A stretch of 64,000 nt of DNA from an uncultured Chromatiales bacterium (GCA_964448285.1 CAYUWG010000008.1:18645-82644), one strand, 5' to 3'; shown: positions 30,724 through 46,200, counted from the stretch's first letter. Notes: generated from the letters alone by a model not told the origin. Numbers and translations are program-made.

Positions 30724-32394
30724 ATGTCAGACAATAAAATCATCTTCTCCATGATCGGCGTTGGCAAAGTCGTCCCGCCGAACCGATACATCCTCAAGGA
30801 CATCTACCTCTCGTTTTTCTACGGCGCGAAGATCGGCGTACTCGGTCTCAACGGCGCTGGGAAATCCACGCTGCTGAAGATCATCGCGGGGCTTGACCGC
30901 GACATCCTCGGCGAGATCACATCGGACAAAGGAATCACGTTCGGCTATCTGCCACAGGAGCCGGAGCTTGATCCAGGCAAGACCGTCCGCGAAGTGATCG
31001 AAGAGGGCGTGCAGGACGTCGTGAACGTCGTGAAGGAGTACGAAGCGGTGAACGCGGCCTTTGCAGAACCGGACGCGGACTTCGACGCACTGCTCGAGCG
31101 ACAAGCGAAACTGCAAGAACGGATCGACCATCTCGACGCATGGGATCTCGACAGCAAACTCGAAATGGCAGCCGATGCTTTGCGCTGCCCGTCGGGAGAA
31201 ACACCGGTGAATGTGCTTTCAGGCGGGGAGCGGCGTCGCGTCGCACTGTGCCGTCTGCTCTTGCAAAAGCCCGACGTGCTTCTCATAGACGAACCGACCA
31301 ACCATTTAGACGCGGAGTCCGTCGCGTGGTTAGAACAGCATCTTGCGAAGTACGAAGGCACCGTCATTGCCGTCACGCACGACCGCTACTTCCTCGACAA
31401 CGTCGCGGGATGGATTCTCGAACTCGACCGGGGCGAAAGGATTCCGTTCAAGGGCAACTACACTTCGTGGCTTGAACAGAAGCAGGAGCGCTTGCGCGTC
31501 GAAGAGAAGCAGGAGTCGAAACGGCAACGCATTCTCGCGCGCGAGTTGGAATGGGTGCGCATGAATCCCAAAGGCCGTCACGACAAGAGCAAAGCGCGCA
31601 TCGCGGCGTACGAAAAGCTTCTCACCGAAGAACAGGAGAAGCGCAACGAGGAGATGGAGATCTTCATTCCCGCAGGACCGCGACTCGGCGACGTCGTGAT
31701 CGAAGCGAAGGGCGTCTCGAAAGCGTTCGGGGACAGATTGCTGTTCGAGGGTTTGGACTTCTCGCTCCCACCCGGCGGCATCGTCGGCGTGATCGGTCCG
31801 AACGGCGCGGGTAAGACGACGCTCTTCCGCATGATCACGGGACAGGAACGTGCGGACGCGGGGACGTTCAAGATTGGCGAGACGGTGGCGCTCGGCTACA
31901 TCGACCAGAACAGACCGCTCGATGGGGAGAAGACGATCTATCAGGAAATCTCCGGCGGCGACGATCTCATTCGCGTGGGAAGCCGCGAGGTGAATGCGCG
32001 CAGCTACGTGGCGCGGTTCAACTTCAGCGGCAGCGACCAGCAGAAACAGGTGGGGCTGCTCTCCGGCGGCGAGCGCAACCGCGTCCATCTCGCGAAGATG
32101 TTGAAGGAGGGTCCGAACGTCCTCCTCCTCGACTAACCGACGAACGACCTCGACGTGAACACGCTCCGCGCGTTGGAAGAGGCGCTACTCAACTTCGCCG
32201 GATGCGCCGTGGTGATCTCGCACGACCGCTAGTTCCTCGACCGCATCGCGACGCACATACTCGCCTTCGAAGGCGACAGCCAGGTGCGCTGGTTCGACGG
32301 CAACTACGCGATGTATGAGAAAGACCGCAAGCAACGGTTGGGCATCGAAGCGGACAGGCCACACAGGATTAAGTACCGGGCGATGACGAGGTGA
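30724..32394 (+). pseudogene. ettA: ABC-F translational throttle EttA with two in-frame stop codons
   Basis: Two ABC cassettes are present (GLNGAGKST ... LSGGERRRVAL ... LLIDEPTNHLD; GPNGAGKTT ... [11 protein letters not shown]). The second Walker B reads LLLD-TAA-PTNDLD, with TAA at 32134-32136 where Glu is expected. HDR-TAG-FLDR has TAG at 32230-32232 where Trp is expected. The frame continues to the TGA at 32392-32394 with a canonical EttA C-terminus. Confidence 0.75.
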
Positions 32395-32536
32395 GAGGGA
32401 TAGAGTTGGCTCACTTTGAAATTATGCTGATAGCATTAACCCATCAGCATGAGTCGATAATGAAGACGAATTCCTTGAAATTATACGTTGCAATTCTCTT
32501 TAGCAGCGTGCATTTTTCCAATAAGGAGATGACCCA

Positions 32537-32743
32537 ATGAAATTCACAATAACCATATATCGCGATGAAGACGGCATGTTTATCGCCGAATGTCCTTCAA
32601 TTCCCGGTTGCATCAGCCAAGGAAGGACTGAGGAAGAGGCACAGTTGAACATTCAAGATGCCATCAAAGAAGCCCTTGAAGCTCGAGCTGAGTTGGGTAT
32701 GCCCCTTACGATTGCGACCAAACAAATCGATGTTGCAGTGTAG
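32537..32743 (+). CDS. hicB: HicB-family antitoxin
   Basis: MKFTITIYRDEDGMFIAECPSIPGCISQGRTEEEAQLNIQDAIKEALE (UPF0150/HicB fold). Its TAG stop overlaps the hicA ATG. Confidence 0.7.
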   Translation: MKFTITIYRDEDGMFIAECPSIPGCISQGRTEEEAQLNIQDAIKEALEARAELGMPLTIATKQIDVAV

Positions 32744-32971
32744 ATGCCGCCAGTTCCTCTTTTGCGCCCCTCGGAGGTCATCAAGATATTCGAGAAACTC
32801 GGATGGAGAGTAGTGCGCCAACGAGGCAGTCACATCATTCTCACCAAGACCGGACAGATTGCAACTCTGTCGGTTCCAAATCATGAACAGATCGCGCGTG
32901 GCACCCTACGCGGCTTGATCTCAAAAGCCGGATTGACCATCGAACAATTCCTCGAAGCATCTGGTCACTAA
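32744..32971 (+). CDS. hicA: HicA-family mRNA interferase toxin
   Basis: [26 protein letters not shown]....[23 protein letters not shown] is the canonical HicA/YcfA motif set. Confidence 0.75.
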
Positions 32972-33004
32972 CCTCTCGCCGTATTTACCCGCGCACCCGA
33001 AGCA

Positions 33005-33393
33005 ACGTGGCGCGGTTCAACTTCAGCGGGAGCGACCAGCAGAAACAGGTGGGGCTGCTCTCCGGCGGCGAGCGCAACCGCGTCCATCTCGCGAAGATGT
33101 TGAAGGAGGGTCCGAACGTCCTCCTCCTCGACTAACCGACGAACGACCTCGACGTGAACACGCTCCGCGCGTTGGAAGAGGCGCTACTCAACTTCGCCGG
33201 ATGCGCCGTGGTGATCTCGCACGACCGCTAGTTCCTCGACCGCATCGCGACGCACATACTCGCCTTCGAAGGCGACAGCCAGGTGCGCTGGTTCGACGGC
33301 AACTACGCGATGTACGAAAAGGACCGCAAGCAACGGTTGGGCATCGAAGCGGACCGGCCGCACAGGATTAAGTATCGGGCGATGACGAGGTGA
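33005..33393 (+). repeat. 389-bp perfect direct duplicate of the ettA 3' end (copy E2)
   Basis: Near-identical to 32006..32394. It carries the same TAA and TAG and ends at the same TGA. Confidence 0.9.
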
Positions 33394-33521
33394 TAAGTAT
33401 CTAACGGCTATGCGTTTCAGCGGCGCCGACGATCACCTACCGGCGGAGGTACCCCAGGCACCTGCGGCGTCCGCTGGAAAAGCTTGTTAGATTTTGCGGC
33501 ACACCTATCCTGTATTTGCCA

Positions 33522-34148
33522 TCAAAGCAACCCTACAAAGAAAGGGGTGTAGGAAAATGAAAAGACGGATCGACCTTCTCGCATATCCCATAGAAACTCC
33601 TTTAGCATGTCCGCCCACTCTGCCCAACTACGGTATGTTCCATGGTCCTGAATCCACTCACCAAGATGTGCCTCTTCGATCATCTGGACCGGTAGACCGG
33701 CATCGATAGAGGAGGGGTGCTCCAATAGTGGGACATCCATTACAATGTCCCCGACCTCCTCGGATACCGGGTGCAGATGACACCACAGCACCCGCGCCTG
33801 ATTGTTCAGATCGAATAGCGATGTCACGAGTGGCACGGCAGCCAAAACCGGGATGCTGAAGTGGTACCCTACATAGGTCGCTCTAAAGAGGGAGTGATTG
33901 AACTTAACCTGGATGTGCTCATCTCCTGTATCCAACACCTTGGGGCGTCGGGCGAAAATCGCGACGACCTTCAGAGTAATGCCATCACCACCCGCTACTC
34001 CGACGCGACTTCCCTCGCGACTGGACCAGTAGTAGAAGGGTAACGCACGCATACCCGCGCCACCAAGTGCCCAAACAGCTCTCGGGACGAGGAAGTACTC
34101 CACCGTCCGCTCGTTCATAAAGCCGATCCGTCTTCGTTGGCCCATCAC
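33522..34148 (-). CDS. hypothetical protein (4th gene of kinase operon)
   Basis: 208-aa ORF in GC-rich DNA, co-oriented with the upstream genes. No motif recognised. The start is uncertain (possibly the ATG 30 nt downstream). Confidence 0.4.
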   Translation of the reverse strand: MMGQRRRIGFMNERTVEYFLVPRAVWALGGAGMRALPFYYWSSREGSRVGVAGGDGITLKVVAIFARRPKVLDTGDEHIQVKFNHSLFRATYVGYHFSIPVLAAVPLVTSLFDLNNQARVLWCHLHPVSEEVGDIVMDVPLLEHPSSIDAGLPVQMIEEAHLGEWIQDHGTYRSWAEWADMLKEFLWDMREGRSVFSFSYTPFFVGLL

Positions 34149-34254
34149 GCCTACATAAATCTAACGCTCAGCATCAGAGGCGGCGCCCACCGCCGTCCGC
34201 TGCATGCTGTTGTTAGCCGGAAGATGCCGGTCAGTGTTATCGGGAATCTTTGGT

Positions 34255-35544
34255 TCACTGCAGGCTGGTCCAACGCCGTCGTAGTACCGGCCCTCGTTGC
34301 TTGTCCAGCATGGCGAGCGCCGCGCGGTTCACGTCGAGAGAGTCGGTGAAGTCCCGGTTGGCGCCGAGCACGCCATTCGAGCCGAGAGTGTGGAGCAGGT
34401 CCTCGGCGTCGTTGAGCGTCTGCTCTTGGGCCTGCCACGCCTCGTCGTACTCTGCCGCATTCAGTGCTTGCGCCTGGCCGCGAAGAGCGTGCAAGTAGTG
34501 GCGGAAGGCCGCCTGCTCAGAGAAGCGTACGGAGGACGGCTGCACTCCGCTGAACAACGGGTCAACATAGCCGCCGTCGAATTCAGACGGTGGCTTCATG
34601 AGATCGAGCACCCCCTGCTCGTAGGCCACGTCGAGGAACGGGATCTTGTATTCCGAGAGGGCCCACGGGCAGTAGTACCACGTCGCTCGGCGCCGGATCT
34701 CCTCTTCATAATCCTTGTTGAACTTCTCGGGCGGGAACGACCGCACGTTCATCCACGTCCCGGAGCAGATGGCATTCGCTCCTGCGACGTGCGAGACGAG
34801 CATCTGATGATTGCAATAGCCGAGGATCACCTGCGCGCCCGCAAGGCGCAGCCCAGCCGTCAAATCAAGGACGTGCGCGAGCCAGATGGCGTCCTGAACG
34901 AGGTAGTCGCCGTTCGGATGTTCGCAGACGATGTAATACCCGTCTGCCCTCCAGCGGGTGACCGCTTCCAGTAGCGCGGTGACCTGCTCGCGGTTTCGGG
35001 CAGAGTCAGCCCCCAGAGCGAGCGTCGAGTACAGCGGTTTGGAATCGCCAGCCAGGTCGCGCGCGGTCGTGAGAAACGACTCATGATGAGCAAGCCAGGG
35101 ATCATCAACGGGATCGGCGAGCATCCCGGGCAGGATGATGGCCTCCGTGCCAAGGTCTTCGTTCAGCTTGACGATCTTGCGAACAAGAGACTCCATCTCG
35201 GGTCCTTTGAAGAAGGATCCCGATGCGAAGTCGGCCGGCCAGAACTCGTGGGAGCATAGTCGCTCATGATCGGCGTGCGGGACATAGAACTGAGGGTCAA
35301 GCAGCGCCTTCCCGCCTTCAACCTCGGCCACGTCCTCAGCCAAGCGCCGGAGTTGCTTGTCGTTCAGGTCGCGAGGGCTCAAAACAACTGTACCTCCACC
35401 CCATTCCGTGAGAAGGTGGCGGCAGTGGTCCATCATCCCGAATCCGAACTGAAGGTGAAGCTCCATCAATGTCCTCCTCCCACGAAGGCGCTTCGGCAGG
35501 GTCCACCGCCGCATGAACATGCCCGCGTGAGCGTACAGCTCCAT
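34255..35544 (-). CDS. hypothetical protein (429 aa), translationally coupled to the kinase gene
   Basis: Its ATG at 35544 lies 1 nt after the kinase TGA (TGAcATG). The gene is GC-rich. No motif recognised. Confidence 0.45.
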   Translation of the reverse strand: MELYAHAGMFMRRWTLPKRLRGRRTLMELHLQFGFGMMDHCRHLLTEWGGGTVVLSPRDLNDKQLRRLAEDVAEVEGGKALLDPQFYVPHADHERLCSHEFWPADFASGSFFKGPEMESLVRKIVKLNEDLGTEAIILPGMLADPVDDPWLAHHESFLTTARDLAGDSKPLYSTLALGADSARNREQVTALLEAVTRWRADGYYIVCEHPNGDYLVQDAIWLAHVLDLTAGLRLAGAQVILGYCNHQMLVSHVAGANAICSGTWMNVRSFPPEKFNKDYEEEIRRRATWYYCPWALSEYKIPFLDVAYEQGVLDLMKPPSEFDGGYVDPLFSGVQPSSVRFSEQAAFRHYLHALRGQAQALNAAEYDEAWQAQEQTLNDAEDLLHTLGSNGVLGANRDFTDSLDVNRAALAMLDKQRGPVLRRRWTSLQ

Positions 35545-35545
35545 G

Positions 35546-36409
35546 TCATTGGACTCCCTCCCGGTCGCAGAGGTCCTTGATCCAATCGTAAGCCTCGCGT
35601 GCCGTCTGGCACCTATGGACGGGGTTCGGTTGTGCCAAGGTTGCCACGAGGTCCGCGAAGTCGCGCGAGATGGGGGCTACTAAGCGCGGAAGTTGATTCT
35701 TGGCAACACGAGCCATGATCTCGAAACCGTCCCGAGCGCCGTCGCGGTGAGGATTGCGGCCGGTAGCGGCCTCATAGAGCGTCACGCCCAGCGCGAAGAG
35801 ATCGGCGCGGGCGTCGATCTCGGGCTTGTCATTGCGGCATTGCTCGGCGGGTGCGTAGCCGATTGTTCCCCAGCCTGCGGGAGCGGCGGTCGCCGTAATA
35901 GAGTCGAGGTCGAGGTGGCGTGCGAAACCGAAGTCGATGAGCCAGAATCCGCCTGCTGGATCGACGATGATGTTCGCGGGCTTCACGTCTCGATGAACGA
36001 TGTGGACGGCTTCCGCTGCGACCAAGGTCTCCGAGACGTGCAGCGCCAACCGTAGGAGTTCGGGACAGGCGAGCGGAGCAACACGGATGCGGCTGCTCAG
36101 GACCTCTCCCGGAATGCGCTGCTCACGGAACCAGACGATCGTTCCTGTATTCCCGGTGAGTTGCCCGTGCTGGAAGATGCGCGGCATCCGAGCAGCATGG
36201 ACCCTGGTAGCTGCCTCCAGCTCCCTCACCGTTCTTGCGGGATCCGTCCCCGGGTGCATGAGCTTGACGACAACCCCGCCGTCAGTCGCGTGCTGCGCAG
36301 CGAAGACCTGCTTCTGACCTCCCGCTGCAATCGCCTGGAGGTCGGTGAGGTCCGGGAACTGGTGTGCGAGCCAAACCGGATCTACCTGGGAGGGGATCGG
36401 CATAATCAT
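35546..36409 (-). CDS. Hanks-type serine/threonine protein kinase (kinase domain only)
   Basis: VVVKLMHP (VAIK-like Lys), catalytic loop HRDVKPANIIV, DFG (LIDFGFARHL) and APE-like GTIGYAPAEQ. There are no additional domains. Its start overlaps the upstream gene's stop as ATGA. Confidence 0.75.
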   Translation of the reverse strand: MIMPIPSQVDPVWLAHQFPDLTDLQAIAAGGQKQVFAAQHATDGGVVVKLMHPGTDPARTVRELEAATRVHAARMPRIFQHGQLTGNTGTIVWFREQRIPGEVLSSRIRVAPLACPELLRLALHVSETLVAAEAVHIVHRDVKPANIIVDPAGGFWLIDFGFARHLDLDSITATAAPAGWGTIGYAPAEQCRNDKPEIDARADLFALGVTLYEAATGRNPHRDGARDGFEIMARVAKNQLPRLVAPISRDFADLVATLAQPNPVHRCQTAREAYDWIKDLCDREGVQ

Positions 36410-37185
36410 CGGTTGCTGTGGTCCTTGGAGGCACGCCATGCAAGGTCATTGACAACCCACGAGGCGTACGAGCGTGGCAAGCGCGCGGTGGAAGCGCCCC
36501 ATTCCCTGATTCCATCTTGCCCGGGAGATAGTACTCCGATCCCGAGTCGTTGCGCGTCTCGGACCTGCTCCTCGGAAACGCGGGGCACGAGGACGTAGGA
36601 CTTCGATGCGAACCAGGTGTTCAGCCGTGCTTGGTTCAGCACGTCTGCCCACTTCCCGATTTTCGCCTCAACAGCGATAATCTTGGTCGCCGCGAAGGTG
36701 CGTTCGAAGGCGCACGGGAACCAGGCACGTCCGGCGGGTCGAACGAGCCCGGCACCGTGCAACCGTTCAATCGAGTATCGGGCGAAACGGGATCCGAAGC
36801 AGTCCTCAAGTTCTGAGTGGGCGGCTCTACGACGCTGGAAGACGTATTGCATGAGCCGCAGGTCGTCCGGTACGAGATCCATGCGCGATTCGTCCCAGTT
36901 GGCGGTGCGGGCGTCGCGCCACACCACGATGACGAGATCAGGGAACCCGGACTCTAGGCCGGGCTCGCGGAGCACCGTCACACGGCTATCCGGGGCATGC
37001 ACAAGCGGCATTGCGAAGATGAAACCATCCACGAGTTCCTGCTCTGGACCCCGCAAGGTGCGACGGAAGACGATGCCCTTCGGCGCCGAGTCGCGGTCAA
37101 CGATCGTTGGTCTCATGGTGGAGTGCACGTTGGTGATTCCCTCCCGTTCAATCACGCGTACTCGGTCCCTTCGTCCGGCCAACAA
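36406..37185 (-). CDS. hypothetical protein with possible PD-(D/E)xK-like signature (first gene of kinase operon)
   Basis: GFPDLVIVVW ... KIIAVEAKIGKW resembles the D / ExK strands of the restriction-endonuclease fold, with an unusually long spacer. The annotated start uses TTG; the first ATG is 23 codons downstream. Confidence 0.35.
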   Translation of the reverse strand: MLAGRRDRVRVIEREGITNVHSTMRPTIVDRDSAPKGIVFRRTLRGPEQELVDGFIFAMPLVHAPDSRVTVLREPGLESGFPDLVIVVWRDARTANWDESRMDLVPDDLRLMQYVFQRRRAAHSELEDCFGSRFARYSIERLHGAGLVRPAGRAWFPCAFERTFAATKIIAVEAKIGKWADVLNQARLNTWFASKSYVLVPRVSEEQVRDAQRLGIGVLSPGQDGIREWGASTARLPRSYASWVVNDLAWRASKDHSNR

Positions 37186-37600
37186 TAATTAGGCTGATCC
37201 GCATAAACCGCCGGTTTCTCATTTTCTTTCCGCATAAGACTCCATAGAATTATTTGTTCTTCGTCGCATCATGCCTCGACCGTTCGATGTATGTAATGTC
37301 GGGTTTGCAATTCATCATACATTTGCATCATCAGCTTGGGTCGTTTCGCTTGGGTCGTCATGTTGCTATTGTTGTCGCAAGATTACTTGGCACAACGATA
37401 GGAAATCAAAGCCTCAAAGTCAAGAAATGCGGGAAAATACTTTCTACTCCTTCATCTCGCACATACTTGCCTTCGAAGGAGACAGTCAGGTGCGCTGGTT
37501 CGACGGCAACTACGCGATGTACGAAAAGGACCGCAAGCAACGGTTGGGCATCGAAGCGGACAGGTCGCATCGGATCAAGCACAAGGCGATGATTGATAAC
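37181..37600 (+). repeat. composite repeat R1: 74-bp R-left element + IntI N-terminal remnant (30 codons, minus strand) + attI-like spacer with direct repeats + ettA 3' copy
   Basis: The minus strand reads [30 protein letters not shown]-stop and matches the start of the IntI-like ORF at 41880. The spacer carries TTGTCGCAAgattacTTGGCACAA. Then comes ettA-like coding ([42 protein letters not shown]) including GTTGGGC. Confidence 0.8.
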
Positions 37601-37622
37601 CGGGTTCGTTGTGTTGTACTGG

Positions 37623-38732
37623 TTAAACGCCATGGTCTTTCTCCGGCTCTGCGTATGTATCCGGTTGTTTCGGTAGTGCTGCGATCGCGGCGGCGATTTC
37701 CCGGAGATCGTTAACCAACGAACGAACGACAACATCTTTTTCCTCTCCAACTGGGACCTCCAACGAGATGGCAAAATCGTGATCGCTGGCTACGGTAAGG
37801 ATGCCTTTTTTAGTTACCCACGATTCAATCAGCGGGCGCACTTCCTGTCCCCGGCCGAAATCATCATCAGCGAAGACAAGCCAGAGAGGTGTTGTTCCAT
37901 GTGTCTTCCAGAGACCAAAGTGAATCCCGAACCATGCGCCTGCGCTACCTGAGCTTTGAGTCCCCATCACTCTCACATAACGCCCAATTCGCTCCCACGA
38001 CGCTTGCGGACGAAGTCCGCTGATGAGGAGAACCTTCTCGGTTACTCCAAGATCTGTTGTTGCCTGAATGATTGCGCCAAGTTGAAGAACAAAAGCTGAT
38101 GTGCGTTGATCTGTGATCTCGACTCGCGAAACTGGAGCGAAGGCATCTGAGTCTGCCGTGTCACAGAGAGCACGTAATTGGATGAGGTCTCCAATGGTGG
38201 TTGGAGCGCTGATGCACTCGTACTCCAATACGGACAGGACATTCTCCCAAGATGTGAGCGCCAGAATAGGACCAAGTTGTGTATCTGCTGAACGTGCTAT
38301 AGCGACAGCAGCAACACGCTCGGTTGCGGGGATTCCCTCGACTTCAAGTCTCCTGCGCAATTCCCGCCACAGAGTCTGTTCACGTGCGGCCGGACCGACG
38401 ACGAGAAGAACCGTTGGCTGCTGGTACGTTGCAAGTTGCTTCAGGTACGAAACCGGTTGCTTGTCTGTCAGCCCCGCCCAGAACTTGTTCTCCACGAAAA
38501 CGCGTGGTTGATTGTCGGAGAATCCCCACAGATCCGGACGAATCGTTCCTTCGGTTTGCTGAGTCTTGAATCGCAACGACGGGAGTTCTGGGGCAACGCC
38601 TCGAAGAAGCTTCATTATACCTCCTCGAGCGGCTTCGCTCGATTCGAGAATGTATGCAAGCGCATCGGTCGCTACGTCTTCATTCACATTGGAAAACCGC
38701 TTCTGGATGATATGGCTGAGTACAGTCTGCAT
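37623..38732 (-). CDS. hypothetical protein with PD-(D/E)xK nuclease motif
   Basis: [23 protein letters not shown] gives D, then 12 aa, then ExK with hydrophobic strands, the classic restriction-endonuclease-fold core. Confidence 0.4.
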
Positions 38733-38741
38733 CTAATCGAG

Positions 38742-38939
38742 TTAATCATGCTCCTCAACGCCATACGCGTTTGCCAAACTCTTTTGGGACAACTCCAACC
38801 AGGCATTCTGTTCTTCGTCAGACTGCTCAGGAAAAACGATCACGAGAAGCCGAGAGTGTGGTTCTATTTTGAAGGGTTCATCCAACCGTATCTGCTCACC
38901 ATCGAAATGGGCCGCTAATGCTACTGTTTTCATTGACAT
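38742..38939 (-). CDS. small antitoxin-like protein (65 aa)
   Basis: Short acidic-C-terminal protein (EQSDEEQNAWLELSQKSLANAYGVEE) lying 9 nt upstream of the PD-(D/E)xK gene. Its size and composition resemble small type II antitoxins. The family is not identified. Confidence 0.3.
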   Translation of the reverse strand: MSMKTVALAAHFDGEQIRLDEPFKIEPHSRLLVIVFPEQSDEEQNAWLELSQKSLANAYGVEEHD

Positions 38940-39003
38940 TTTCTCCTTAGGTGATAGTATCTATCTGTCTAATGAATTCCAGACCAACTCGCTGGCATAA
39001 TAG

Positions 39004-39216
39004 TCAGGCTGCAACCTGAATGTAGGACGAGTACGCCGATGGTTCAGGGGCGTCGTAACCCTCCATTCGCAAGCCTTCGAGATGAAATTCGATGGCTTCC
39101 TGAATATTTCGTTCGACTTCCTCTTTCGTTCTACCGGTAGAGCCACAACCCGGCACGTCCGGAGAAAATGCAGAGTAACCCGTACGTGTCTTTTCAACGA
39201 CGATAAGAAATTTTTT
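39004..39216 (-). CDS. HicB-like antitoxin (orphan)
   Basis: MKKFLIVVEKTRTGYSAFSPDVPGCGSTGRTKEEVERNIQEAIEFHLEGL is a UPF0150/HicB fold. No HicA partner is adjacent. Confidence 0.6.
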   Translation of the reverse strand, partial: KKFLIVVEKTRTGYSAFSPDVPGCGSTGRTKEEVERNIQEAIEFHLEGLRMEGYDAPEPSAYSSYIQVAA

Positions 39217-39278
39217 CATGGTTTCAATCCAGCTTGTTTGAGGATGTTCTGAGAACACGTCAGACCATTGTGATACGT

Positions 39279-39872
39279 TCAAGCTGCTTCAGCGTGCAGT
39301 CTCAAACCAAGAGCCCCAATCACCTTGAGGATGGTATCGAAATCAGGAGTACGTTCACCGGACAATGCCTTATAGAGACTTTCGCGTGAAAGACCAGCGT
39401 CACGCGCAACCTGTGCCATGCCACGTGCACGGGCAATATCTCCAAGCGCCTTTGCGATAAATGCGGCATCACCATTGGCTTCTTCCAGACATGCTTCTAA
39501 GTAAGCCGCCATTTCCTCAGGCGTTCGGAGATGTTCGGCGACATCATATCGAGTGGTTTTGGTTTTTCTCATCATGGGCTCCAACAAGTTTCGCGCGAGG
39601 CTACGAGCTGTCTTGATGTCGGTGGCTTGGGTACTTTTATCACCGCCTGCCAGCAGAATTACCATCTCGCGTCCGCGCTTTGTGAAATAAACCCGATAAC
39701 CGGGACCGTAATCGATCCGCAACTCGGAGACGCCATCACCAACTGGTTTGACATCTCCAGCATTTCCTGCCGCCAAGCGCTCAACTCTGGATAGGACACG
39801 CGCTCGTGCCTGAATGTCGCTCAGTCCATCGAGCCACTGCACGAAATTCTCTGTTTTGCGAATCTCAATCAC
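39279..39872 (-). CDS. in-frame fusion of RelE/Gp49-like addiction-module killer and HTH antidote
   Basis: Residues 1-100 (MIEIRKTENFVQWLDGL...GPGYRVYFTKRGREMVILLAGGDKSTQ) match the putative addiction-module killer family. Residues 105-197 (MMRKTKTTRYDVAEHLRTPEEMAAYLEA...GLSRESLYKAL) match the cognate antidote family. The junction is cccATGATGAga. Confidence 0.6.
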   Translation of the reverse strand: MIEIRKTENFVQWLDGLSDIQARARVLSRVERLAAGNAGDVKPVGDGVSELRIDYGPGYRVYFTKRGREMVILLAGGDKSTQATDIKTARSLARNLLEPMMRKTKTTRYDVAEHLRTPEEMAAYLEACLEEANGDAAFIAKALGDIARARGMAQVARDAGLSRESLYKALSGERTPDFDTILKVIGALGLRLHAEAA

Positions 39873-39937
39873 GGAAGGAATGTAGCCTAACGGCTACACA
39901 TTGTCAAATGATTATTCTACGCTCAGAGACTACTTGG

Positions 39938-40051
39938 GTCGCCCGCTGGCTCGACGGCAACTACTCCTATGTACGAGAAAGACCGTAAGCAGCGCTTAGG
40001 CATCGAACCGGACGGCCGCTCAGGATTAAGAATCGGGCGATGACGAAGTGA
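39938..40051 (+). repeat. diverged ettA 3'-end copy E3
   Basis: Encodes RWLDGNYSYVRERP?KQRLGIEPDGRSGLRIGR-stop; ends at TGA 40049-40051. It is the most diverged copy. Confidence 0.6.
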
Positions 40052-40247
40052 CAAGCTTCTAACTGCCCTGCGTGTAAGCCGCGCCGGTATGATATTTTGA
40101 TTGAATGCGAGATCTTAGTTGAGTCGACTTAACACGCGGGTTAGGCGTCTCATCTCGCCATAAGATTTTCATGCCAAACCCGCGATCGTCGGCTATTCGA
40201 AGTCTTAGCGCCTACGTCCCGTATGTAAGGTCTAATCACTGCCGATG

Positions 40248-41351
40248 TCATCGTTTTTCACTTCCTGAATGTATTTCCAATAGACTCTTTCTATGAAGAA
40301 TACCAAAGCGTTGCCAAGCATATATATAGTCTCCAACAACTTCTATTCTAGCAATCTCATCAACTTGAATACCTGAGTCCGATTCTGTTCCAACTGGAAT
40401 CCAGCTTTTGCCGCTGTTTGTTGAAACAAATACTCCAATATTGGTGCCACAGAATATGTAAATTCCGAATGTCGCAATCGAGCTTACAAACGCAACCCTG
40501 TCGGATAATCCTATAGAACATCTAACCCAACTCTCTCCATTGTCGGAAGATATGTATAATCCATCATTGGTTCCAGCAAAAAGCACGTTTCCCAATGCAG
40601 CCAGTGAATTAATCATCCGGTTATATAGTCCGGAATTAACTCCAATCCAGTTTTTTCCACCATCCCTGGATAAGAATATCCCATTGTCCGCTCCGACAAA
40701 TATAAGATTTTCGCACCTAAGGACAGTGTTGACTCTACTGCTATACTCCTTCAATGTGCCAAATCCTTCGTCACCAGAAAAGAATACAACGCGTTTCTCG
40801 TCCCATCTTTTAATATCATCTTTTACCGCCATATACAATCTTCCTTCATATGTGACAGCATATATTTCATTATTGAATACATATATGTGCCGTATACCGC
40901 TTTTGGAGAGCACGCTATCTGGAGATATATTGGATGGAGTAGTTCGTTCTCGCTCTGAGGACATATTTACGCTGATCGAATAACTGATAGCTTGCCACCA
41001 GTTCCATCCCCTGTCTAAAGAGATAAACAGACCCTTCTGTGTTCCGCAAATCAAAATCGAATCTATCGTGATAAACCGTGTAATACCTACATTGGTAGGT
41101 AATTTTCCGCCGTATTTCCATTCTGAAAGAAAACCTGGTTGGCTTGGAATTGAGGGTGCGCCATTTTCATTCGCAGCGAATATTCCATGAGAATGAGCAA
41201 CCACCAACAACCTACCGGATTGCCGAATATCAACGATAGGCCCACCCCGTGCCATAGTCAACTGCCATTGCGAAATTGCTTTCGAATATGGTGCAGTGAA
41301 TACGATTGCGGCAATTATAACTGCTGGTTTTACTGCTAATCTACAATACAT
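40248..41351 (-). CDS. secreted BNR-repeat beta-propeller protein
   Basis: Signal peptide, then BNR motifs [32 protein letters not shown]. The gene is AT-rich (about 40 % GC) and its start overlaps the intI remnant's stop. Confidence 0.55.
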
Positions 41352-41880
41352 AGTGCGGTAAATTCTGATTTATTAATTCAATCGGGCTTCGTGCTGCCGA
41401 ATGCCCCCTGTTAAGTACATGGGTGTAAATCATCGTGGTTTTAATATCGCGGTGGCCTAAAAGCTCTTGGACAGTCCGAATGTCATAACCGCTTTCGAGC
41501 AAGTGTGTCGCGAACGAATGCCGGAACGTGTGACAGGTTACCCTCTTCGTCATGCCTGCTTTCATTGCGGCGATCCGCGCGCGAATGAGTTCGCACAGAT
41601 CACCGACCGCTAGTCCGATAACGTTGCGATACAAAAAGAGTAGAGCAGAGAGAGCTTGATTCTGTGTCGAAGCGCTTACTTTTTCCTCAACAGCAAGATG
41701 TGTCAGAAAAGCATTGATCTCAGGTTCCGACATCTCTTGCGGATGGCGCACATCATTGAAATGAACGTAGCGTTTCACCAAAAAGCAGTACACCTCCTCC
41801 GTACGATGGCTGTAATGTCGAACCTGCAATGCTTCATGCATTTGCATCATCAGCTTTGGTCGCTTCGCTTGGGTCGTCAT
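41341..41880 (-). pseudogene. intI: integron-type tyrosine recombinase (IntI-like) with a large internal deletion
   Basis: The N-terminal 100 aa ([15 protein letters not shown]...[31 protein letters not shown]) match the IntI core-binding domain. The ORF then joins directly to box II / C-terminus [43 protein letters not shown]. The catalytic Arg/Lys/His patch region is missing. Total length is 179 aa versus about 320 expected. Confidence 0.7.
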
Positions 41881-42085
41881 ATTGCTATTGTTGTCGCAAG
41901 ATTACTTGGCGCAACGATAGGGAATCAAAGAGTCAATGTCAAGAAATACCCGAAAAAACTTTCTTACTCACTTCATCTCGCACTTTCTCGCCTTCGAAGG
42001 CGACAGTCAGGTGCGCTGGTTCATCGGCAACTACGCGATGTATGAGAAAGACCGCAAGCAGCGTTTAGGCATCGAAGCGGACCGT
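41881..42085 (+). promoter_or_regulatory. attI-like region of R2: direct repeats TTGTCGCAA-6 nt-TTGGCGCAA, then ettA 3' arm to the GTT core
   Basis: It lies immediately upstream of, and divergent from, the IntI-like start. Two 9-bp direct repeats sit about 20 bp from the ATG. The ettA-like arm ([35 protein letters not shown]) ends shortly after GTTTAGG. Copies of the same layout occur in R1, R3 and R4. Confidence 0.5.
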
Positions 42086-42122
42086 CGGGTTCGCCCTGCT
42101 TTAAGTCGGCACGGCGCGGTCG

Positions 42123-42742
42123 CTATTCACGGGGCCACTTCCGGAGCGCTGCTTCAAAGCAGACATTGAGGAACTGCTCCACGATATCGATCACTGCAAC
42201 GACGAGCTTTGAATCAGCGAGTAGGGCGTCCACGACAACTGGACCCAAGGCTTTCCGCCGAATGAACGACTGGACCGCTCCTTTACCAGCGAAGTCAGCG
42301 AGTTGACCGCCGTTGTGAACAAGGCAGTTACGAACCTCAACAACACCCCGGACATCTTCGAGCAACTTTGACGGAAGGGCCAGGTCCATCCGGGCGACCT
42401 TCTGAGCATAGACAAGGAAGCGATCGAGCCACGAACCCCGCAGCTCGCGGAGGGACAGCTGTAGGTTCTCGGCATCACGAAGGCTCTGCGCGAAGTCTCT
42501 GAGATCTCGCTCAAGGAGACCAACTGTGACGACAATCACCGAGCTGTAGAGAATGCTGGGAAACGGCTCCTCGTAGAGGTAGGAATCCTCGTTCCCGAAG
42601 GCATCGTGCTTCCCAACCAAGCGCGTCGCTGATTCCGCGAGGAACTCCTCGACCGTGGTCAGATAGGCGCGAAGCTCATCAACGTGGATCAAGGCATCAA
42701 CGGAGCAGCCGAAGAACTGAAGACCGGGTCCGATGCTAGCCA
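42123..42742 (-). CDS. Abi_2 (AbiD/AbiF)-like HEPN-domain protein
   Basis: Rx4H motif EVRNCLVHNGG near the C-terminus in a predicted helical protein. The likely start is MASIGPGLQ at 42742. Confidence 0.4.
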
Positions 42743-43503
42743 TGTCCTCTCTTGTGTCGCCTAACGTTGTGCCGCTCAGCCGCGAGCGGCGGCCCATTGC
42801 TTCCGCACTCGCCCGGCGCCCGCCCGCCGCTCGTCTGCTGCAGCGGCGTGTTATGCTTCCTCTCGGCTTTCTCACCAGCTCTCTCGACGATCTTTAGGAT
42901 ATCGCTGGCGACAACGATTCTTTCGAACGCCGACAGAAAGTCCATGTCGACATCCCGGTGCGAACAGGGATTCTTGTAGTAGCCGAATGCGCCAGCGACG
43001 TATTGACACAGAGCCTCCCTTTCGGCCTTTGGAAGCGCCGGGTCGGTCAAGGGCCCGTTCTCAGGGTGGAAGGCCCTGCGGATTAGAGTCACGCCAATTT
43101 CGTCGGCACTGGACTTGGTCCACTTCCTGATCCCAGTCTCTACCGCCTTAAAGGCCTTGAGGACGGCACTTTCGTAATCGCCCGAATTCAACATGTGAAG
43201 GGAAACCTTGGCTATTCGAGGATGGATGTACATCTCCGGTACGAGTACGTAATCCCGAACAACGCTCCTAAACTCGCGCTCAAGGAACCTGAACCCGACC
43301 TTCGTTGGGTAAAAGGTTTCGTCGCCTTCGTCATCGTACCCACGTTGGTATTGACGTATATCTATGTGAGTCTCTGGACTAGCTTTGTACTTGACGCGCG
43401 AAAAGCGAACCGGCCGATATCCCCCGGCGTTCGCCTCGGCAATGACGTGCTGATACTCGATCTTTGCTTCGACTGCGCTCTTGTCCTTTGTCTTCCTCTT
43501 CAT
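42736..43503 (-). CDS. TIGR02391/Hypoth_Ymh-like HEPN-related protein
   Basis: The C-terminal 130 aa show AFKAVETGIRK ... LIRRAF ... YVAGAFGYYKNPCSHRD ... FLSAFERIVVASDILKIV. This matches the conserved FxAVE...RNPxAH-type blocks of that family. The likely start is ATG 43503 (MKRKTKDK). Confidence 0.45.
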   Translation of the reverse strand: MKRKTKDKSAVEAKIEYQHVIAEANAGGYRPVRFSRVKYKASPETHIDIRQYQRGYDDEGDETFYPTKVGFRFLEREFRSVVRDYVLVPEMYIHPRIAKVSLHMLNSGDYESAVLKAFKAVETGIRKWTKSSADEIGVTLIRRAFHPENGPLTDPALPKAEREALCQYVAGAFGYYKNPCSHRDVDMDFLSAFERIVVASDILKIVERAGEKAERKHNTPLQQTSGGRAPGECGSNGPPLAAERHNVRRHKRGHG

Positions 43504-43528
43504 CGCCCATTCTCTCCGCGGTAGGCCC

Positions 43529-43602
43529 AACAATAATTAGGCTGATCCGCATAAACCGCCGGTTTCTCGTTTTCTGTCCGCATAAGACTCCATAGAATTA
43601 TT
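43529..43602 (+). repeat. solo copy of 74-bp R-left element
   Basis: aacAATAATTaggctgatCCGCATAAaccgccggtttctcgttttctgtCCGCATAAgactccatagAATTATT has a 7-bp terminal inverted repeat and an internal direct repeat. It abuts the start of the Ymh-like gene. Confidence 0.7.
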
Positions 43603-43682
43603 CTACATAGTTGTCATGACCGGCAGCAAAAAGAGGCGCGAGGTAGGCGCGACGCTTTTTGCTGTCCGTGTTGATGGCGCTG

Positions 43683-44006
43683 TTAACGTGCATTTGCGCC
43701 CAACATCGTTTGAAATGGTGCGGAGGGAAGGAATCGAACCTTCCGCGTTCTCTCTTGGAAGGAATGTATTTGCTCACACAACCATCTCTCGCTTGGGTTG
43801 GAGTTTTTTTCCACCAGGCTCCGCAGGAACGCAGCTCCGCACCAAACACATGCCACGACAAAATGAAGTATGGCGTTTGAGTTTTTCATGATTACCTCCT
43901 TCGCAGTTTCAATGAAGCTGTTTACGGAATGGTAGATGTCCAACCCAAACGAGATTTCGATGTGTGCCTCAATACAAACCTCTTTACCCAAGCTCGTGTG
44001 ATTCAT
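43683..44006 (-). CDS. hypothetical small protein between two R-left copies
   Basis: 107-aa ORF with an internal hydrophobic segment (MKNSNAILHFVVACVWCGAAFL). Coding status is uncertain. Confidence 0.25.
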   Translation of the reverse strand: MNHTSLGKEVCIEAHIEISFGLDIYHSVNSFIETAKEVIMKNSNAILHFVVACVWCGAAFLRSLVEKNSNPSERWLCEQIHSFQERTRKVRFLPSAPFQTMLGANAR

Positions 44007-44026
44007 GGTTGCTGCACGCTAACAAT

Positions 44027-44384
44027 AATTAGGCTGATCCGCATAAACCGCCGGTTTCTCATTTTCAGTCCGCATAAGACTCCATAGAATTATTTGTTCT
44101 TCTTGGCATCATGCCTCGACCGTTCGATGTATGTAATGTCGGGTTTGCAATTCATCATACATTTGCATCATCAGCTTTGGTCGTTTCGTTTGGGTCGTCA
44201 TGTTGCTATTGTCGTCGCAAGATTACTTGGCGCAACGATAGGGAATCAAAGAGTCAATGTCAAGAAATACCCGAAAAAACTTTCTTACTCACTTCATCTC
44301 GCACATACTCGCCTTCGAAGGCGACAGTCAGGTGCGCTGGTTTGACGGCAACTACGCGATGTATGAGAAAGACCGCAAGCAACG
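44027..44384 (+). repeat. composite repeat R3 (R-left + IntI 5' remnant + attI-like spacer + ettA arm truncated exactly at the GTT core)
   Basis: Same layout as R1. The ettA-like sequence ...gaccgcaagcaacG stops at 44384 and is followed by unrelated sequence (actagtccgtg) where the other copies have GTTGGGC. Confidence 0.8.
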
Positions 44385-44429
44385 ACTAGTCCGTGCCAGG
44401 TGCTGCGGTTTTTATCCGGGTGCTCAACT

Positions 44430-44792
44430 TCATTTATCCGGGATGCGTTCAGAGATGCGAATGCGGCCGGGTTGGACAACGATAAAGCAGCCCTCAATCA
44501 TCGTACGATGTGTATCAATAAATTCCACGACGGTTCGAACCATGGCTCTCCGGGCTTTGGCCGGAAATCGGATGAAAATGACGCCAGATGATTTGGCAAC
44601 GCTGGCAAAAACCAGTTGTCCAAAGTCTTTATCTTCAGTCAAAAGAATACGGGATTCCGCGAGGGTAAGCTCAATGATCGCGTCATCGGTCGCTCCAGGT
44701 CTTTCGTCGCAGACCGCAACGACATCGTGACCCATGGTACGTAATGCATGTACAAGGGAGAAATCGCAGTTCTCATCCGCAAGGAAACGCAT
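44430..44792 (-). CDS. DUF5615 PIN-like toxin-family protein
   Basis: [30 protein letters not shown]...[14 protein letters not shown] matches the [11 protein letters not shown]5615 consensus. Confidence 0.6.
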
Positions 44793-44807
44793 CCGTCTCG
44801 AAACAGT

Positions 44808-45044
44808 CTAATTCGAGGGTCCCAACAAAACAGTTTCCTCATGCGCCAGAGTATCAGCGGCATACATGGCAGCTGCACGGATATCCTCCGGAGTCAGACC
44901 GGGGTATGCGTCAAGGAGATCGTCCTCAGTGGCGCCTTCGCCGAGCTTGCGTAGGATAAGCTCCACTGTGATGCGCGTTCCCCGGATCACCGGTTTTCCC
45001 AGCATGATCTTGGGATTCATTTCGATTCTGCTTGAGATAGTCAT
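44808..45044 (-). CDS. DUF433 antitoxin-family protein
   Basis: GKPVIRGTRITVELILRKLGEGATEDDLLDAYPGLTPEDIRAAAMYAA matches the DUF433 consensus. It is paired with the DUF5615 gene 15 nt downstream. Confidence 0.6.
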   Translation of the reverse strand: MTISSRIEMNPKIMLGKPVIRGTRITVELILRKLGEGATEDDLLDAYPGLTPEDIRAAAMYAADTLAHEETVLLGPSN

Positions 45045-45154
45045 TGTCTTACCTCCTGTTTCGAGTATAGTTTAACCAATCACTTCAACAGAACAAAAAG
45101 AGAGGGTGTGCGGATAGTCGTTATTGTCCCGTGGTGAACATGCAGGTGTAACAG

Positions 45155-45273
45155 ATAGTCAGGTGCGCTGGTTCGACGGCAACTACGCCATGTATGAGAA
45201 AGACCGAAAGCTGCGCTTAGGCATCGAAGCGAACATTCCGTATCCGATCAGGTATCGCGCGATGTCAAGTTGA
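45155..45273 (+). repeat. diverged ettA 3'-end copy E4
   Basis: Encodes [38 protein letters not shown]-stop. Confidence 0.65.
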
Positions 45274-45414
45274 GAGGAAAACATCGCAGACATACTCGCC
45301 TCAATCATAGTCAGGCACCCGATGGTTTAGGGGCATCGTAACCGTGTACCCAATGCAAAAGAAGCAAGCGCCAGATATCCCGGCAGTGTCGGATGAATGT
45401 TCGGTTACCCAGCG

Positions 45415-45738
45415 TCAGGGAGCCGAATATCTCCAGAGCATCTTGATTGCCAAGGTGATGGCCAGGAAACACAACAGCCAGAAGACGATTGGCGCAGAAG
45501 CTCCCTTGAAGCGGACTCCTGCGACGTCGAATTCGATCGGTCCGGAAGAGATCTGCAGAACGATGGAAACGAAGAGCGCTCCCAAGCCGGCCATGGGCAA
45601 GCCGACGATCACCGGGAAGTTCTGGCGAATCAACTCGGTCCAAAAGGTGCTTTTCGAAGCATCGAAGGTAAGCAGCCCCACGAGCGCCGCAATGCCGAAC
45701 AGGGAAAGCGCTACCGCGACGACCCAGTTCATAGTCAT
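45415..45738 (-). CDS. small hypothetical membrane protein
   Basis: Three predicted TM helices (WVVAVALSLFGIAALVGLL, FPVIVGLPMAGLGALFVSIVL, IVFWLLCFLAITLAI). The start is uncertain (ATG near 45738). Confidence 0.3.
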   Translation of the reverse strand: MTMNWVVAVALSLFGIAALVGLLTFDASKSTFWTELIRQNFPVIVGLPMAGLGALFVSIVLQISSGPIEFDVAGVRFKGASAPIVFWLLCFLAITLAIKMLWRYSAP

Positions 45739-46044
45739 CCTCAGTTTCTGGTCGCTTTGCTTCCGGTCGATGTCGGGACCTGTGGTCGAGAGAATGTCGC
45801 TGTCGTCCCGGTGTTGGAGACCGGGTCCGGGCGAGGGTTCGGAAGAAGGATGCACGCGTGTTCCTTTCTTGATGAAGTTATATATAAATTTTAGTGGCAT
45901 TTCCGTCCCCAATGAACGTTCCGGCCGACCGCACAAAATAAAACGAACTCTTCATATCGCCGAATTCGATTCGCCGTTACGCAAACCATAAAACATATTT
46001 CCTCTAATGGCTATACAACGGCAATAAAGCAAGTGTAAGTATAT

Positions 46045-46200
46045 CAGGTTTCCGTACATCGTGATTGATCGTCCATAGACAATTGGTTCGTGTATTCGTA
46101 TCATCAGTTTCTGTCTTTTCGTTTGCGTTGTCATGCTGCTATTGTTGTCGCAAGATTGCTTGTCGCAACGCCAAGGAAACCGAAGATTCAGTGTCAAAGG
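46045..46200 (+). repeat. R4: degenerate IntI 5' remnant plus direct repeats TTGTCGCAA-6 nt-TTGTCGCAA
   Basis: The minus strand reads MTTQTKRQKLMIRIHEPIVYGRSITMYGNL..., matching the IntI N-terminus. The spacer carries two perfect 9-bp direct repeats. No ettA arm follows. Confidence 0.6.

Follow-up and report, generated by a model that had tools for sequence, protein, structure and literature searches.

Protein kinases have been described in anti-phage defence both as single genes and as partners of nucleases. PD-T4-6 is a single-gene serine/threonine (Ser/Thr) kinase defence from E. coli (Vassallo et al. 2022, PMC9519451), and the profile models that carry its name also pick out a kinase gene that was found in all S. 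thermophilus genomes of one study (PMC11514479). In PglW and DndF a restriction-type nuclease is paired with the kinase, and a sensor/effector hub with winged helices has been proposed for this arrangement (PMC12839542). Proteins resembling tRNA-guanine transglycosylase (TGT) are also known from defence, namely DpdA and Cap10, the latter of which binds CdnD, a cGAS/DncV-like nucleotidyltransferase (CD-NTase) with 7-deazaguanine at its N-terminus (PMC13434031, PMC12839542, PMC10164549). Here, we analyse a cassette in which a kinase gene lies between the genes for a predicted nuclease-fold protein and a predicted TGT-like barrel, found in a 64,000-nucleotide stretch of DNA from an uncultured Chromatiales bacterium (GCA_964448285.1 CAYUWG010000008.1:18645-82644), hereafter the window, from whose first letter coordinates are counted. 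An original prediction, made from this sequence, had taken positions 33522-37185 as a GC-rich operon of four co-oriented genes and a candidate undescribed defence system. We find that three of these genes, g1, g2 and g3, make up a conserved and horizontally mobile unit, and that the fourth, g4, is a facultative accessory.

Results

All four genes are confirmed as open reading frames (ORFs) on the minus strand. Those of the conserved unit, together with an extension to one of them, are given below, and residue numbers are counted from the gene starts, with g1 taken as 249 and g3 as 429 residues.

g1, 36406..37155, minus strand: predicted PD-(D/E)xK nuclease-fold protein with a winged-helix insert, 249 residues from the GTG at 37155
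g2, 35546..36409, minus strand: Hanks-type Ser/Thr protein kinase, kinase domain only, 287 residues
g3, 34255..35544, minus strand: predicted TIM-barrel enzyme with a C-terminal helical bundle and a TGT-superfamily-like structure, 429 residues
g3 N-terminal extension, 35464..35544, minus strand: 27 codons, MELYAHAGMF...

When 185,579 species genomes were scanned, about 100 matches were found, from which 80 loci were taken for the comparison of gene order. In 71 of these the three genes adjoin one another in an unchanged order, and the other nine are cut by contig ends. The hosts include Gamma- and Betaproteobacteria, Planctomycetota, Acidobacteriota, Myxococcota, Chloroflexi, Bacteroidota, Clostridia and other groups, and the same order is also found on a plasmid of Bacillus mycoides and on one of the haloarchaeon Natribaculum. 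PGAP annotates the Bacillus triad as hypothetical, serine/threonine-protein kinase, hypothetical, and a recombinase and an integrase follow it. The catalytic constellations of the triad proteins persist even at 25-30% identity. Two metagenome contigs (L146, 288-2327; L158, 162-2201) carry the kinase and the barrel as one fused protein of 679 residues, which matches Pkinase at 3e-52 over residues 11-263 and the g3 hidden Markov model (HMM) at 2e-13 over residues 339-569, with g1-like and g4-like genes downstream. We have high confidence that g1, g2 and g3 belong together as an obligate genetic unit, and the three enzymes, judged by their sequences, are apparently active. Beyond the triad no neighbour is conserved, and a conserved fourth gene other than g4 was considered and rejected, every remaining downstream ORF being a singleton. 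A few triads look decayed or interrupted: in one, about 1.6 kb separates g1 from a truncated kinase (L014), another has a truncated kinase (L059), and in a third about 1.9 kb is inserted between the kinase and a truncated g3 (L087). No paper describing the triad was found, although the collection searched is incomplete and this is absence of evidence only.

As maximal ORFs the four genes encode 259 (g1), 297 (g2, or 287 from its ATG), 429 (g3) and 208 (g4) residues, and database gene calls on identical DNA, taken from a 3,982-bp Logan contig with the same cassette, give 249, 287, 403 and 198. The mechanical ORF of g1 extends to a TTG at 37185, within a repeat designated D6, and an alternative ATG lies near 37115. 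The tight translational coupling that had been proposed for the operon stands for the triad, in which an ATGA overlap at 36409-36406 holds the stop of g1 and the start of g2, and TGAcATG at 35548-35542 holds the stop of g2 and the start of g3, whose ATG lies one base past the kinase stop. It does not extend to g4, which is 106 nt from g3 if counted to a GTG (34148) and 136 nt if counted to the conserved ATG at 34118. The same division is seen in base composition, where the GC content is 62.4% for g1-g3 but 54.5% for g4, close to the 53.2% of the window, and the GC-rich module is therefore three genes rather than four.

The g2 protein is the only one of the cassette with a match in any family library (Pfam Pkinase, 1.8e-20). 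Whereas the original prediction had recognised no known kinase defence here, PADLOC places a PD-T4-6 model on it (PDLC04042, 2.1e-40, with residues 36-290 aligned to profile positions 16-272 of 292). Other matches are to phrog_2361 in PHROGs (1.6e-28) and, more weakly, to mad6 in PADLOC (6.5e-27) and to MAD6 (1.3e-24) and PglW (1.8e-11) in NCBIfam, these weaker ones lying far under the family cut-offs where such are set; the BREX_PglW model NF033442 covers the kinase core alone, at 42.6 bits vs a cut-off of 990. The VVVK, HRDVKPAN and DFG motifs are present as had been described, but the supposed APE motif reads Y-A-P-A-E. Conserved in at least 95% of 65 g2 sequences are the G-loop (G30/G31), K49, E63, H139-R140-D141, K143, N146, D159-F-G161, E189 and R266; the archaeal copy keeps all of them except F160, and the Bacillus copy largely keeps them. 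The features of a Hanks-type Ser/Thr kinase are thus found from the Gly-rich loop through to the Arg of subdomain XI, and g2 is predicted to be a minimal, catalytically competent enzyme of this type.

The g1 protein, whose identical 249-residue gene call is P0121, gave no match in Pfam, NCBIfam, PADLOC or PHROGs, and a profile search of PDB sequences returned only a sub-threshold hint of an Lrp/AsnC winged helix-turn-helix (wHTH) at an E-value of 0.08. Its AlphaFold model, with a predicted local distance difference test score (pLDDT) of 90, has the restriction-endonuclease-like alpha/beta core and D...(D/E)xK arrangement of the PD-(D/E)xK superfamily, with P72-D73 at the start of a strand, E163-A-K165 in the next core strand and a wHTH inserted between them. 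What had been pointed out as a possible PD..ExK pair is a real signature, since D73, E163 and K165 each recur in at least 95% of 49 sequences, and E38, E64, D73, E163, K165 and Q175 are shared by the homologues from the window, Bacillus and the haloarchaeon. On the model, g1 is a wHTH-bearing PD-(D/E)xK nuclease fold with an apparently active catalytic site.

More than 1,400 homologues of g3 were found, none with a Pfam domain, and at 50% identity the family falls into 893 clusters among 1.84 billion representatives; the best 150 cluster representatives listed are about 400 residues long, or shorter fragments, and carry no extra domain. The model (pLDDT 82, predicted template modelling score 0.85) shows a (beta/alpha)8 barrel with three long helices after it. 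Its best structural matches are TGT, QTRT2, DpdA, ArcTGT and Cap10, and the top match in Foldseek, which also has the best TM-scores (0.43/0.50), is the TGT of T. maritima, so that a TGT-type TIM barrel is the closest structure found. Enzymes of the TGT/DpdA/Cap10 kind break and remake N-glycosidic bonds. The g3 residues Q32, S56, P57, D83, P84, Q85, Y204, N266, R268, E298, H349 and Y350 are kept across the domains of life, and the near-invariant D83-P-Q follows beta3, the place of the general acid/base Asp in TGT, which has D-S-G there. Beta8, after which TGT has its nucleophile Asp, is followed in g3 by C260-S-G-T-W-M-N-V-R, with no Asp; both comparisons are of position along the fold. The two large proteins that had been listed as unknowns do indeed represent two families (g1 and g3) without an entry in Pfam, NCBIfam, PADLOC or PHROGs, but the 259-residue protein is predicted to be a wHTH nuclease fold and the 429-residue protein a TGT-like TIM barrel, and neither resolves to an ordinary metabolic enzyme.

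The conserved core of g3 begins at M27 (35463), and residues 1-23 of the model have a pLDDT below 50. The 27-codon extension before it echoes the true N-terminus MELHLQFGFGMM (MELYxHxGMF vs MELYLQFGYGMM). Many loci at 45-90% identity likewise keep 26-27 in-frame codons open, which begin with an ATG or GTG directly past the kinase stop and fit the consensus M[ED]L[YF][LV]HxG[ML]F (loci within L008-L072); in other clades a gap of 0-20 nt separates M27 from the kinase stop. The extension may have arisen by an ancient duplication of the 5' end, and might serve in regulation or structure. One g3 homologue, from Thioalkalivibrio denitrificans (P0246), bears the UniRef name 'Tyrosinase copper-binding domain-containing protein', which is probably a pattern-match artefact, as neither fold nor family gives it any support.

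Mobility and genomic context

The features that surround the triad in the window are the following.

g4, 33522..34118, minus strand: 198 residues, no assigned fold; facultative accessory outside the mobile triad block
Terminator-like hairpin, weak, 34160..34178, minus strand: where the homology block of the triad ends, directly before g4
Right boundary, the R unit, 37179..37592: D6 at 37179-37254, D4 at 37311-37405 and the third copy of the ettA 3' tail at 37458-37592; from repeat families D1, D4, D5 and D6 and alignment
Left boundary, second ettA copy, 32998..33428: 99%-identical repeat of the final ~300 nt of ettA with its tail; from repeat families D3, D1 and D7 and alignment

The cassette had been predicted to be mobile cargo, with an ettA-tail copy on its left and an R unit on its right, and these boundaries are borne out. 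Loci from Thioalkalivibrio, Planctomycetota and Gemmatimonadota share about 82% nucleotide identity with the window from 37186, at the edge of D6, to 34161-34258 only. This homology to distant phyla stops just past the stop of g3, and the triad alone is the transferred block, with g4 outside it. The weak hairpin at 34178-34160 falls where the cross-phylum homology stops (34161), and a scan for promoters and terminators gave a number of sites no higher than expected from shuffled sequence, this hairpin included. An Rfam scan of the window found one tRNA and nothing else.

Eight Flavobacteriaceae genomes of several genera (L074-L082; Flagellimonas, Maribacter, Euzebyella, Croceitalea, Allomuricauda and an isolate named 'Cytophaga sp.') carry a near-identical triad with its flanks, seven of the eight also sharing an upstream ORF of 1,671 residues, and presumably hold a single mobile element that has spread recently. 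At other loci the triad is found within a tyrosine-integrase island between glnA/PMT and glnD (L093), or beside an integrase and IS21 (L001), Fic/MazE (L002), or ArdC, AlpA, transposases and AbiTii (L096). Sampled at 24 loci, 136 neighbouring ORFs include about 11 DDE transposases as well as integrases, TerY-P, AbiE, IetA and DrmD. The toxin-antitoxin (TA) and abortive infection (Abi) genes that had been noticed around the cassette in the window are also there, namely AbiEi/Eii, HicBA, HicB, a Gp49/HI1420 fusion and HEPN (Ymh). The triad is a horizontally mobile module, recently transferred as the triad block alone. A phage origin was rejected on the basis of zero matches in 50,697 phage genomes, and 2.9 million IMG/VR contigs gave three.

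In the window, the 3' tail of ettA is present in seven direct copies within 32250-46200, starting at 32311, 33310, 37517, 39969, 42038, 44359 and 45190. The copies delimit units of 1-4.5 kb with TA or defence-type cargo, several of which share D6 (76 nt) and D4 (95 nt), and a truncated tyrosine recombinase (Phage_int_SAM_4) lies at 41341-41880 within the array, which looks as if small integrative units, most of them without an integrase, had accumulated in tandem at the 3' end of ettA. Of the D6 repeat there are three copies, two of which (37179-37254 and 43527-43602, the third being 44019-44094) abut the 5' end of a minus-strand ORF, and mechanical TTG starts fall within D6 for both g1 (37185) and the HEPN/Ymh gene (43533). 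This position suggests a fixed point of cargo insertion or a shared promoter/5' region. The ettA gene itself (30724-32395) has an in-frame TAG where EttA has Trp (HDR-TAG-FLD, right past 32136), after which the frame resumes to about 32395, and the 99%-identical 300-nt duplicate at 32998-33297 holds the same TAG; the gene could be a pseudogene or be read through, or the TAG could be an artefact of sequencing or assembly. The unit of the array that comes next holds an unannotated ORF of 369 residues (37623-38732, minus strand), with no match in Pfam, PADLOC or PHROGs.

Discussion

That the triad is a conflict or defence system seems to us somewhat probable, its defence role, its substrates and the order of events being what we infer. 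What the analysis shows is strict synteny across the domains of life, recent horizontal transfer of the triad as a block, intact catalytic residues in all three proteins, the two folds, the fusion of kinase and barrel in relatives, and surroundings rich in mobile, TA and Abi genes. We put at roughly 0.55 the probability that it is an undescribed anti-phage or anti-mobile-element system that works as follows. The kinase and the barrel enzyme would form one signalling and enzymatic unit, and g1 would provide the recognition and cleavage of DNA. Upon infection, the kinase-gated barrel would excise or exchange bases on nucleic acid and the nuclease would cut, with the outcome that the invader is restricted or the infection aborted.

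Several observations weigh against this reading. The support for a defence role is contextual, and the context is itself mixed, since the sample of 136 neighbours also holds many housekeeping genes, for which reason the enrichment for defence islands is to be taken as qualitative. The cassette holds no phosphatase, no sensor domain and no obvious immunity partner. The PADLOC match of g2 to PD-T4-6 is weak evidence because the models are non-specific (PMC11514479). For g3, the Foldseek E-values barely set TGT apart from other TIM barrels. Searches of Pfam (E<=1), NCBIfam, PADLOC and PHROGs gave zero matches, that to the Pfam TGT family (PF01702) included, whilst hhalign against E. coli Tgt returned a probability of 0.3 even with a query alignment of Neff 5.3 (effective number of sequences), and profile searches of PDB sequences with both shallow and diverse g3 alignments found no TGT. 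Since no sequence method ties g3 to TGT, we call it TGT-like at the level of the fold only. The canonical TGT zinc motif CxCxxC...H is present in none of 270 main-clade g3 proteins and occurs at the equivalent position only in divergent relatives, namely the L146/L158 fusion and L159 (3710-5005), for which Pfam still gives the g3 part no name.

A more specific version of the proposal is that the kinase is physically coupled to the TGT-derived barrel, as separate subunits or fused, and that this represents a new bacterial and archaeal immune chemistry in which glycosidic-bond exchange is gated by a kinase. The barrel might then excise or exchange bases in invader DNA or tRNA, or might modify a protein partner with a nucleobase as in CdnD, with g1 as the arm that reads and cuts DNA. 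We regard this version as tentative and rather doubtful; if it were true, kinase-gated glycosidic-bond defence would have no described counterpart.

The main rival, which we judge unlikely, is a restriction-modification-like system in which g3 puts a modified base into host DNA, as DpdA inserts preQ0, g1 restricts DNA that is unmodified or differently modified, and the kinase tunes the balance between the two. The intact nuclease site of g1 and a winged helix that could read DNA would suit such a role, as would the sequence of g1, which is less conserved than those of the two other proteins, in the way that specificity subunits tend to be, and there is a precedent in Dpd (PMC10164549, PMC12839542). 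However, the cassette has no DpdB- or DpdC-like partner and no genes for preQ0 synthesis, g3 has no sequence similarity to DpdA or TGT and, in the main clade, no zinc motif, and no role for a kinase is known in Dpd-type systems.

The triad might instead serve addiction or stabilisation, in the manner of a TA pair, or competition between elements, and be kept because its loss is costly rather than for protection from phages. We consider this quite improbable. TA modules do lie nearby, both here and at other loci, the triad is carried on plasmids and integrase islands, and kinase toxins exist, for example in the HipA family; but three large conserved enzymes exceed a typical TA pair, and no small, labile antitoxin-like gene is conserved beside them. 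Roles in TA and in defence are, in any case, not mutually exclusive.

The original prediction treated all four genes as one conserved cassette, and its expectation of co-occurrence in other genomes holds for the triad but only in part for g4, which follows g3 in only 3 of the 71 window-clade loci (the window, a Coriobacteriia metagenome-assembled genome, L072, and L092 with its near-duplicate L090) and is missing from that place in the other 68. In a further locus (L033) a g4 relative lies 2.3 kb downstream of the triad. The g4 protein itself has no match in Pfam or the PDB, and a word-index search of 5.8 billion sequences gave two. An obligate four-gene operon with this 208-residue protein as an integral part would find some support in the occurrence of g4 relatives directly downstream of g3 in three independent lineages, and in a sister clade with a tightly packed kinase-TIM-nuclease-g4 order (for example L162, 459-3706). 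A metagenome scan seeded with g4 found 114 relatives, and about 19 of the 80 loci kept (L099-L178) have triad genes within 3 kb, although the triad is rare (about 100 of 185,579 species genomes). Yet most g4 relatives are without a triad and adjoin RES, TIR, IrrE/M78 peptidase or Beta_protein genes, which is other defence-type cargo. The homology of the closest relatives of the window, at 82% DNA identity, also ends before g4, whose GC content is host-like and which stands apart by a gap of 106-136 nt. We therefore think an obligate operon of four very unlikely; g4 is a recurrent but facultative accessory and not a core gene, and its family may be an independent or shared component of defence islands.

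That g2 is a defence kinase acting as a single gene in the manner of PD-T4-6, or a kinase of housekeeping signalling, with its neighbours as unrelated passengers, is hardly credible, for although the PADLOC models match it over its full length at 2e-40, they are non-specific (PMC11514479), and g1 and g3 flank the kinase in every untruncated locus from bacteria to archaea, with fusion to g3 in some. The housekeeping role in particular was rejected because the distribution of the kinase is sporadic and horizontally transferred and its flanking by g1 and g3 constant, so g2 does not belong to a housekeeping signalling pair, which would have counted against the original prediction.

Comparison with known systems

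Set against the described systems, the cassette with a predicted, context-based role in defence resembles several in part. With PD-T4-6 and Stk2 it shares a eukaryote-like Ser/Thr kinase domain in a defence setting, and the PD-T4-6 model fits g2 along its full length, but g2 is a bare domain of 287 residues that always sits between g1 and g3 and in some relatives forms one protein with the barrel, so this is no single-gene system. At the locus in the window, the PADLOC label 'PD-T4-6' would hide a conserved three-gene system. The TerY-P triad is likewise a three-gene candidate defence cassette with a kinase, and a separate one (TerY, PP2C phosphatase and Ser/Thr kinase) adjoins one related locus, whereas ours has neither a vWA/TerY protein nor a PP2C phosphatase in Pfam or PADLOC searches.

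The likeness to PglW (of type 2 BREX/Pgl) and DndF lies in the combination of a nuclease, an active Ser/Thr kinase and winged helices, of which g1 and g2 resemble a split, minimal version. PglW joins a NERD nuclease, a pseudokinase and a kinase in a single protein and is accompanied by PglX and PglZ. The cassette differs from PglW and DndF in having no NERD match, pseudokinase, PglX, PglZ or DndGH, and in having a TGT-like barrel as its third component. From Dpd it differs in lacking DpdB (a ParB-like ATPase), DpdC and the large restriction module, in a g3 that is unrelated to DpdA by sequence and has no zinc motif in the main clade, and in possessing a kinase, which Dpd systems do not. Type IV cyclic oligonucleotide-based anti-phage signalling systems (CBASS) combine a CD-NTase with the QueC-like Cap9 and with Cap10; Pfam and PADLOC searches gave no CD-NTase or QueC match for any gene of the cassette, a cyclic-nucleotide effector is missing too, and the partner enzyme is a protein kinase.

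At only 3 kb and with obvious sites for point mutants, the cassette would be clear and cheap to study, and two unannotated protein families would be defined by it, one of about 890 clusters at 50% identity (g3) and one of wHTH nucleases (g1). If the triad is a defence system, then a compact cassette common to Bacteria and Archaea joins two themes met until now in different systems, the kinase signalling known from Stk2, PD-T4-6 and PglW and the TGT-type base exchange known from Dpd and type IV CBASS.

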